A stretch of DNA of 64,000 nucleotides. Origin: an uncultured archaeon (GTDB lineage Archaea; Thermoproteota; Nitrososphaeria_A; Caldarchaeales; Wolframiiraptoraceae). Under the pieces are notes generated by a model. That model was given only the letters and a program-made list of their open reading frames with translations, had not been told where the DNA came from and ran no database searches. The position numbers were made by a program, and so were the translations under genes. The stretch spans positions 128,001 to 192,000 of the forward strand of contig CALKCF010000002.1 of assembly GCA_938083505.1 (NCBI GenBank). Reading direction: 5' to 3'. Shown one piece after another: positions 16,133-34,786 of this stretch. Within the stretch, counting starts at the first letter, position 1; each line of letters opens with the position of its first letter.

Positions 16133-17506
16133 ATGGTAACACTAACCACATCAGGCTCTGTTTTGAGTTACACCCCAAGTTTTGAACTTTTAAATAGGTG
16201 GGTAATCGAAAAGCAAATTTGTTGTTATTGTGGCACATGTGCAGGTGTATGCCCCAGGATAGTATTGAATGGAAAAGTTCCAAGACTCATAGATTACTGT
16301 TCCGAGTGTGGAAATTGTTATAAATACTGTCCCCAGACCTACACACCTGTTAATGAATTTGAGAGAAAAATATTCCCTGGCACAAATAAGGAAGAATATT
16401 TAGGATACTACGAAAAATGCATATTTGCACAAAGTACCGATAAAAGCATACTTTCCGTAGCGCAAAACGGAGGTTTAGTGAGTGCATTATTAATTCATGC
16501 ATTGGAGACCGGGCTAATAGATGGCGCCATTCTGACAATAACTGACAAAAATTGGATGCCTAAGCCCATGCTTGCTAGAACCCCTGAAGAAATAAAGAGG
16601 GCGGCTGGCTCAAAATATGTTATGTCCCCAAATATGTTGATTTATCGCGAAGTAATTAATGATCCGACGATTAAAAAGGTCGCTGTCGTAGGACTTCCAT
16701 GCCAAATTAGGGCTGCAAGGAAGTTACAAATGGAGCCTATAATCCCTGTTGAGAATGGAAAGATCGAGTTTATAATCGGATTATTCTGCCACAGGAATTT
16801 TTCCTATGAGGGTCTATTGGAGACGGTTAAAAAGATTCTAAACATCGATCTCTACGAGGTAAAGAAGTTCGATATACGGAAGGGAAAGTTCACGATCCTC
16901 ACCCAGGAGGGTAAACAAGTAGAGTTACCTGTAAAAGAGCTCAGCAAACATTCTTGGTCGTCGTGCGCTTCCTGTACTGACTTCACGGGAAGGTTGGCGG
17001 ATATATCTGTCGGCAATGTTGGCATCATAGACGTCGATTGGAGCTTGGCTATAGTCAGGTCTAAGAAAGCCATGGAGCTCCTAGATAGTGCAGTGAAAGC
17101 TGGAAAGCTGAGAATAGCCGAGGGTAAAGATGCTATAGAAGTAATATTAAAAGAGGCACAAAAGAAGGCAGAGAGGCGGGAAAAGGTTAGTGAGCTACTG
17201 TACCAATACTTCTCTGAGCTTGGCATACCTTCAGACGAGGTGCGTGCATACTTTACTCTGCTGACACTAGGAGGTGCCAGTTCTGAAGAGCTCTCAAAAG
17301 CACTCAACATTGGTGGGGCAGAATTAGATGCAATTCTTGCGAGGCTCTGTGAAAAAGGATGGACAGTTAAGCATGAAGACCGTTATATACCTACTAGACC
17401 GTCTCTCGTTCTACGAATTGAAGTGACAAAGTTCCACAATTTAATCAAGAAGGTTTTAGAGAAAGAGTCTGAGTTGGAGGGCATATACGCAAGGAAGTTT
17501 GGCTAG
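16133..17506 (+). CDS. FrhB/FdhB-family (F420 hydrogenase beta-like) protein with N-terminal 2x[4Fe-4S] and C-terminal TrmB-like winged HTH
   Basis: CCYCGTCAGVCP/CSECGNCYKYCP; AQNGG, AAGSKY, VGLPCQ, IGLFC, CASCTDF..LADISVG; tail LGIPSDEVRAYFTLL..GGASSEELSKAL..LARLCEKGW. Confidence 0.85.
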   Translation: MVTLTTSGSVLSYTPSFELLNRWVIEKQICCYCGTCAGVCPRIVLNGKVPRLIDYCSECGNCYKYCPQTYTPVNEFERKIFPGTNKEEYLGYYEKCIFAQSTDKSILSVAQNGGLVSALLIHALETGLIDGAILTITDKNWMPKPMLARTPEEIKRAAGSKYVMSPNMLIYREVINDPTIKKVAVVGLPCQIRAARKLQMEPIIPVENGKIEFIIGLFCHRNFSYEGLLETVKKILNIDLYEVKKFDIRKGKFTILTQEGKQVELPVKELSKHSWSSCASCTDFTGRLADISVGNVGIIDVDWSLAIVRSKKAMELLDSAVKAGKLRIAEGKDAIEVILKEAQKKAERREKVSELLYQYFSELGIPSDEVRAYFTLLTLGGASSEELSKALNIGGAELDAILARLCEKGWTVKHEDRYIPTRPSLVLRIEVTKFHNLIKKVLEKESELEGIYARKFG

Positions 17507-17684
17507 TCGCATCTACGCTATTTTTCATTGTTGAACGTCGCTTGCTCACATTATCAACTATTCCGTAATTGGTAGAGAATATAGAATATACTACGACATA
17601 ATAAGGTTCACGCGCAGACTCTTCCATCAGCATCCTTAATGATATTAATAACTACCTCAACCCGGCCCCGGGTTCAAAAAATCT

Positions 17685-17791
17685 TGGCGCCCTTCGGCGG
17701 GTGGGGTTTTCAACCCTCCCATGGCCGGGATTTGAACCCGGGTCCGGCGGGCGACAGCCGCCGATACTAGACCGGACTATACTACCAGGGC
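17685..17791 (-). tRNA. tRNA-Asp(GTC) with 29-nt BHB intron (17693-17721) at 68/69 in the 3' acceptor strand; CCA encoded
   Basis: GCCCTGG...CT GTC GC...CCGGG TTCAAAT CCCGG CCA|intron|GGGCG CCA; removal restores 7-bp acceptor stem. Confidence 0.9.
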
Positions 17792-17895
17792 TCCATCTGA
17801 ATATGGTAAAAAGAACCTCTATAAAGCAATTCTTAAAGTTTTCTAGAAAATTAAGGTAGCAAGGATTTTATCCCAGCATAAAAGGTTTTGGCTAC

Positions 17896-34486: not shown

Positions 34487-34613
34487 TACATAGATTATGT
34501 TTAAAAGGCTTTTTTAGGGTTAAAGGGCTCCTTATACTCCTCAGGTTCTTAAGATACTAAAAAGTCAGACAACCCATGTATTTTTATCTCTTCGACGGCT
34601 ATTTTTTAGTGAA

Positions 34614-34708
34614 GGCCGCGGCTGGGATTCGAACCCAGGCAGCCGGCTCCACAGGCCGGAAGGCTAAACCGCTACCTCTGCGTCCACATTATAGTGGCCA
34701 CCGCGGCC
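34614..34708 (-). tRNA. tRNA-His(GTG) with encoded G-1 and 21-nt intron (34678-34698) at 9/10
   Basis: G-GCCGCGG TG|intron|AGGT AGCGGTTTA GCCT T CCGGC CT GTG GA GCCGG ... TTCGAAT CCCAG CCGCGGC C. Confidence 0.85.
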
Positions 34709-34786
34709 AACCGCGGCCGCTTATTCATTAGAACGAGCTTATCCTTAAGTGTTTCAGTCAGACTTAAAAAATTAAAGCATTGTAAT

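Follow-up and report, generated by a model that had tools for sequence, protein, structure and literature searches.

A conserved 3' trailer complementary to the T arm is a candidate processing stem for an acceptor-stem intron in a Terraquivivens tRNA-Asp gene

The sole tRNA-Asp gene in a 1.15-Mb genome of Candidatus Terraquivivens, a thermophile genus of the Caldarchaeales (PMC9246946), raises a structural question: how can an intron be removed from the 3' strand of its acceptor stem when the BHB at the intron is built from bases that also form the T stem? The gene, tRNA-Asp(GUC), lies on the minus strand of the window (the whole 64,000-nt stretch of DNA that was analyzed), with its 5' start at position 17791. 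A sequence-only reading of this stretch had proposed that the 3' trailer of the gene is antisense to its own T arm and takes over the T-stem strand that the BHB leaves free. We examined this proposal by enumeration of possible splice sites, comparison among relatives, and folding in silico.

Both ARAGORN and Rfam detect the tRNA-Asp gene, but they place its 3' end wrongly at 17717, with two acceptor mismatches. Excising 29 nt between positions 68 and 69 as a non-canonical intron instead yields a perfect 7-bp acceptor stem followed by G73 and CCA. The product spliced in silico has standard D, anticodon, and T arms and matches its intron-less orthologues, as expected of a canonical tRNA. The features of the gene, with exons assigned by reading of the sequence, are as follows.

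17820-17825, minus strand: putative TATA-like box some 30 nt before G1, conserved in five of seven species
17722-17791, minus strand: exon 1, positions 1-68 of tRNA-Asp(GUC)
17724-17729, minus strand: C61-C66, the BHB exon strand, with C63-C66 in the central helix and C61-C62 in the outer helix
17693-17721, minus strand: 29-nt non-canonical intron between positions 68 and 69, placed by the sole BHB fit and kept in all seven species of the genus
17695-17701, minus strand: 3' part of the intron, with CCC (17701-17699) in the inner helix and GCCG (17698-17695) as partner of the central helix
17685-17692, minus strand: exon 2, G69-G73 (17692-17688), plus the encoded CCA (17687-17685)

When every cut pair that gives the correct tRNA-Asp product was enumerated, exactly one offered a 4-bp central helix. 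In this helix, C63-C66 pair with the final GCCG of the intron (17698-17695), all by Watson-Crick pairs. The flanking 3-nt bulges (17723-17721 and 17694-17692) are each cut after the second base, and the intron helix h' (3 bp) and the exon helix h (2 bp, C61-C62 with G70-G71) are both at least 2 bp long, which fits the published definition of the hBHBh' motif (10.64898/2026.10.13.758758, section 4.8). The proposal that the BHB needs the T-stem 3' strand is borne out by this enumeration, as the only BHB compatible with a correct acceptor stem uses that strand. Because C61-G65 also constitute the T-stem 3' strand, BHB and T stem are mutually exclusive. The genome encodes one RtcB and two EndA paralogues of about 190 aa, the latter being the expectation for a broad-specificity heterotetramer (PMC5829648). 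No 3'-side intron was found in the other tRNAs among the 42 tRNA loci of the genome, so there is no within-genome replicate of this arrangement.

Downstream of the encoded CCA, a trailer 17-mer (17678-17662) is complementary at 16 of 17 positions to the variable loop, T-stem 5' strand, and T loop, the sole mismatch being a G opposite A46. The antisense relationship noted earlier is therefore real, although a pattern search places its target at 17747-17731, one base away from the 17746-17730 first given. Within it, 12 contiguous Watson-Crick pairs join 17678-17667 to C48-A59 (17742-17731). As a test of chance, the 50-nt trailer was shuffled 3,000 times with its dinucleotides preserved and compared with the 107-nt precursor; at least 12 perfect pairs arose once and a 16-of-17 match never. 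Across the 42 tRNA loci, the tRNA-Asp trailer is the only flank-to-body complement of at least 9 bp beyond simple acceptor stems. The elements involved are the following.

17731-17742, minus strand: trailer target C48-A59, comprising the last variable-loop base, the T-stem 5' strand, and T-loop bases 54-59
17679-17684, minus strand: variable linker and first bases of the U-run, differing in length and sequence between species
17667-17678, minus strand: conserved anti-T-arm trailer element of 12 nt (13 nt in three species), invariant in all seven species and all metagenome copies
17659-17666, minus strand: species-specific extension giving four extra pairs across the G.A mismatch, absent from the six other species

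The final four pairs, CCGG (17665-17662), on which the 16-of-17 match depends, occur in this species only. Of the 17-nt complement first described, 12 to 13 nt are thus conserved and the remaining bases are not. The trailer could also fold on itself, with 17674-17669 pairing with 17664-17659 as a 6-bp stem with a 4-nt loop; this 16-nt near-palindrome (17674-17659) is likewise confined to the present species, and the self-fold may help trailer release or may be a chance extension.

Intron and 12-nt core are both present in 7/7 species-level Terraquivivens genomes. The core is invariant across the genus, with a thirteenth pair in three of the seven species, while the linker, U-run, CCA, and intron loop vary (the encoded CCA reads CTA in 4/7) and the DNA 3' of the core cannot be aligned. 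Alignment fails there even among the species that share the convergent neighbor gene, the product of which is only 75-81% identical. The core is also retained in three species with different downstream DNA. No intron-bearing tRNA-Asp copy lacking the element was found in the genomes and metagenomes searched; a metagenome scan for further variants returned only the same species and two unrelated tRNA-like matches. Within the genus, no covariation is seen, the T arm being invariant. The tRNA-Asp genes of 23 further genera in the order are intron-less, and their complement does not exceed 8 nt.

Two further features of the locus were noted among these relatives. In other Terraquivivens species, tRNA-Asp carries an additional intron, after position 7 in L006 and in the D loop in L007, which indicates recent intron gain within the genus. 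An open reading frame just past the trailer (17445-17633, minus strand, 62 aa), which overlaps the end of the convergent 457-aa gene, has no match in relatives and is probably spurious.

To look for the arrangement elsewhere, a T arm followed by its own complement 30-60 nt downstream was sought in 401 sampled genomes of the phylum, with T arms of one sequence type. Besides convergent tRNA pairs and chance matches of 8-10 bp, the survey yielded two further lineages, g83 and G105. The other 8-mer matches extend for only those 8-10 bp and stand behind intron-less tRNAs; we took them as chance. In g83 (represented by G171 and another species), tRNA-Thr(GGU) is interrupted by an intron at 70/71 and followed by a trailer in which 13 nt are complementary to G49-C61. 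The T stem of this tRNA, GCGGG, differs from that of tRNA-Asp, and its trailer matches GCGGG. Orthologues of this tRNA-Thr without the intron, from 23 genomes of the same and neighboring families, show a complement of at most 8 nt, a ceiling that therefore applies to all 46 intron-less orthologues (23 tRNA-Asp and 23 tRNA-Thr). In G105, tRNA-Glu(UUC) combines a 70/71 intron with a trailer complement of 13 pairs, wobbles included, and tRNA-Glu(CUC) has the same intron type with a different trailer that forms nine pairs with bases 47-55.

A pattern for the 70/71 intron type that was blind to the trailer retrieved five genes: the g83 tRNA-Thr, both G105 tRNA-Glu genes, and tRNA-Glu(CUC) of G133 and G112. 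The complement is present in all five, with 10 pairs in G133 and 8 in G112, and all three changes in the G112 gene keep the pairing via wobble. Altogether, three other lineages of the phylum have 70/71 introns in tRNA-Thr or tRNA-Glu, and each trailer fits its own T arm; the arrangement recurs independently, with tRNAs and T-stem sequences unlike those of the Terraquivivens gene. Throughout, the partner bases of the trailer are those just 5' of the BHB exon strand. Outside the genus, a global scan of species genomes for the Terraquivivens T arm and its complement at 30-60 nt gave nothing beyond pairs of convergent tRNAs in DPANN archaea and two bacterial matches in no recognizable tRNA context, the latter probably due to chance. 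Separately, metagenome contig Ga0081606_1016022 (L043) holds a tRNA-like sequence that shares the T-arm-to-CCATGGG junction, followed by a small hairpin; it may represent another 3'-acceptor-strand intron from an unrelated organism.

Other tRNA genes of the Terraquivivens genome also have unusual flanks. The tRNA-His gene (window positions 34613-34730, minus strand) has a 21-nt intron near position 9/10 and, two bases upstream, a second copy of G-1 and the acceptor 5' strand. This leader copy was considered as a second helper, but it is kept in six species, including one (L057) without the 9/10 intron, and so does not track the intron. ARAGORN mis-calls the two tRNA-Gln genes (G000 C7:67070-67190 and C2:12345-12431), giving one of them as "Asp atc." The acceptor stem of the former gains 5 pairs from leader and trailer bases and so reaches 12 bp; that of the latter is lengthened by about 2 pairs.

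Folding was compared with and without the trailer, as the sequence-only reading had suggested. Constraint folding gave ddG values (BHB fold relative to cloverleaf) of +4.3 (37°C) and +1.8 kcal/mol (70°C) without the trailer, and of −8.1 and −4.7 kcal/mol, respectively, with the 12-nt element. The shift in silico from cloverleaf towards BHB thus amounts to roughly 12 kcal/mol (37°C) and 6.5 kcal/mol (70°C), which makes the pairing thermodynamically plausible. The trailer helix encloses the BHB, as the nested hairpin first proposed would have it, and continues the weak 2-bp outer helix of the motif. The precursor of tRNA-Thr folds with the same switch, its BHB lying directly inside the trailer helix. 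In the unconstrained MFE fold with the trailer, the trailer helix is formed and the BHB is not, the BHB fold being 4-5 kcal/mol worse. Even in a precursor that has no trailer, the freed T-stem strand could pair with C3-G7 of the acceptor 5' strand; the element may therefore not be strictly required. After splicing in silico, the tRNA-like fold is about equal in energy to the trailer helix, which makes release of the trailer after ligation plausible. Fold z-scores of the whole precursor (−0.9 and −0.8) are uninformative.

From these data, we consider it likely that the trailer acts in cis as a processing stem, whose formation opens the T arm and completes the BHB while tethering the 5-nt 3' exon. 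In the unspliced precursor, the 12-13-nt element would pair with the stretch immediately 5' of the BHB, namely the T-stem 5' strand and bases 54-59 of the T loop, and the complement to the loop could serve as a toehold. Opening of the T hairpin would free C61-C66 to form the BHB with the 3' end of the intron and G70-G71. The 2-bp outer helix of the motif would thus be prolonged into a long processing stem, a stable flanking helix for EndA. Comprising just 5 nt plus tail, the 3' exon would stay attached after EndA cleavage, so that RtcB could join it. Once the acceptor stem was complete, the tRNA fold would become competitive again, and the trailer would be displaced and trimmed. The trailer does pair with exactly the freed T-stem 5' strand plus the loop, as had been claimed; describing this as capture of a freed strand, however, is less apt than regarding it as an extended outer helix and tether of the BHB, because the trailer always pairs just 5' of the BHB exon strand. 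We infer that the element is transcribed, that it influences cleavage and ligation, and that processing follows this order.

Transcription must pass the U-run for the element to act on the precursor. In this species, the T6 run begins 4 nt past CCA, and many transcripts could terminate there without reaching the element, a caveat raised at the outset. Across the seven species, the T-runs before the element are 6, 4, 5, 7, 6, 5, and 3 nt long. The caveat is weakened by the two species with only T4 and T3, and no run of five or more Ts precedes the element in the tRNA-Thr analogue. In addition, a run of at least five Ts within 25 nt downstream is found at only 13/42 tRNA genes of the genome, and 18/42 have none within 120 nt, so that long tRNA trailers may be common in this organism. 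Given the short runs in two species, the absence of such a run in tRNA-Thr, and the 13/42 count, read-through into the element is likely. An intrinsic-terminator-like hairpin does not describe the region, as the U-run comes before the helix's 3' strand and lies partly within the helix; nor is the run conserved at five or more Ts.

An RNA element linked to the intron without aiding cleavage could account for some of the same observations: its non-tRNA fold might block premature 3' trimming, CCA addition, or decay, or it might assist 3'-end formation. Association with 3'-acceptor introns and conservation would fit any intron-linked role, and the U-run is part of the element in the tRNA-Asp gene. 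RNase Z and the CCA-adding enzyme, however, should in any case have no substrate while the acceptor stem is interrupted. The helix also directly adjoins the BHB in four genes, and the short T-runs of two Terraquivivens species and the lack of a T5 or longer run before the tRNA-Thr element likewise count against this reading. We regard a role of this kind as unlikely.

The complement might instead be a neutral by-product of intron origin, for example through inverted duplication at the T-arm palindrome, or a relic of a convergent tRNA or an integration scar. The T arm is itself a near-palindrome, intron and element arise together on a single branch per lineage, and convergent tRNA pairs give the same pattern match in other genomes. 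At this locus, however, ARAGORN and Rfam find no tRNA or pseudogene on the plus strand, related genera have no convergent tRNA gene there, and in every species only 12-13 nt match before similarity stops. The sharp conservation boundaries inside otherwise saturated intergenic DNA, the registers and sequences that differ among four gene families, the two tRNA-Glu genes of one genome that share an intron type and not a trailer, and the G112 changes that preserve pairing through wobble all argue against a neutral origin, and we consider any of these histories very improbable.

A DNA-level site, such as a regulator-bound palindrome, could be read into the 16-nt near-palindrome (17674-17659) to which the element is extended here, or the element could resemble a guide RNA, yet the palindrome is confined to this species, the complementarity follows each tRNA's own T arm across lineages, and, by eye in seven species, no conserved C (RUGAUGA) and D (CUGA) boxes flank the core as a 10-12-nt guide, so that such readings are scarcely credible.

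The proposed processing stem can be set against three known systems. Non-canonical BHB introns of archaeal tRNAs are cut by broad-specificity (αβ)2 or ε2 EndA and joined by RtcB (PMC4090602, PMC6379350, PMC5829648). The tRNA-Asp intron resembles them in its 4-bp central helix, two 3-nt bulges, 2-bp exon helix, and 3-bp intron helix, and in the two EndA paralogues and RtcB of its genome. It differs in its position in the 3' acceptor strand with a 3' exon of 5 nt, in a BHB that is incompatible with the T stem, and in that the substrate appears to include conserved sequence belonging to neither intron nor mature tRNA. If the proposal holds, archaeal tRNA splicing would gain a third component, a cis helper flank, beside exon and intron, and archaeal tolerance of introns at sites for which the tRNA body cannot provide the BHB, and which leave only a 3-5-nt 3' exon, would be explained. 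An obligatory order of processing would follow for such genes: splicing would precede end trimming, and the flank would act as a strand-displacement switch that frees the tRNA once the acceptor stem is sealed. With somewhat more doubt than confidence, we suggest that introns at the end of the acceptor stem in archaeal tRNAs may generally depend on a gene-encoded flank that changes the precursor fold so that a long processing stem surrounds the BHB. Such flanks could also serve as a signal for gene finders; the 3' end of this essential single-copy tRNA-Asp gene is mis-called by ARAGORN and by Rfam alike.

In rRNA processing stems, the BHB is embedded in a long helix formed by sequences flanking the mature RNA (PMC7714728, PMC10515664). 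The BHB of tRNA-Asp would likewise sit within a long helix, but both strands of the rRNA stem are flanks, whereas one strand is mature tRNA in tRNA-Asp. A search of full texts and reviews found no description of a trailer-to-T-arm helper, and the reviews describe flank helices only for split or permuted tRNAs and rRNA (PMC4090602, PMC3218864, PMC7714728, PMC10515664).

Split tRNA genes are known from Nanoarchaeum equitans and Caldivirga, and permuted ones from Thermofilum pendens and red algae (PMC4090602, PMC3218864, PMC3978253). In these, a flank of about 12-14 nt forms a long helix beside the BHB and holds the pieces for cleavage and ligation (PMC4090602, PMC3218864). The tRNA-Asp trailer, of similar length (12-13 nt), would also build a long BHB-adjacent helix. 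The tRNA-Asp gene is nevertheless single and co-linear: in split and permuted tRNAs, two flanks pair with one another and both are removed by EndA, whereas the tRNA-Asp trailer pairs with bases 48-59 of the mature exon and, lying 3' of the 3' exon, cannot be removed by EndA and must be displaced and trimmed afterwards. A processing stem of this kind would thus provide a mechanistic link between ordinary intron-bearing tRNA genes and split or permuted tRNAs.
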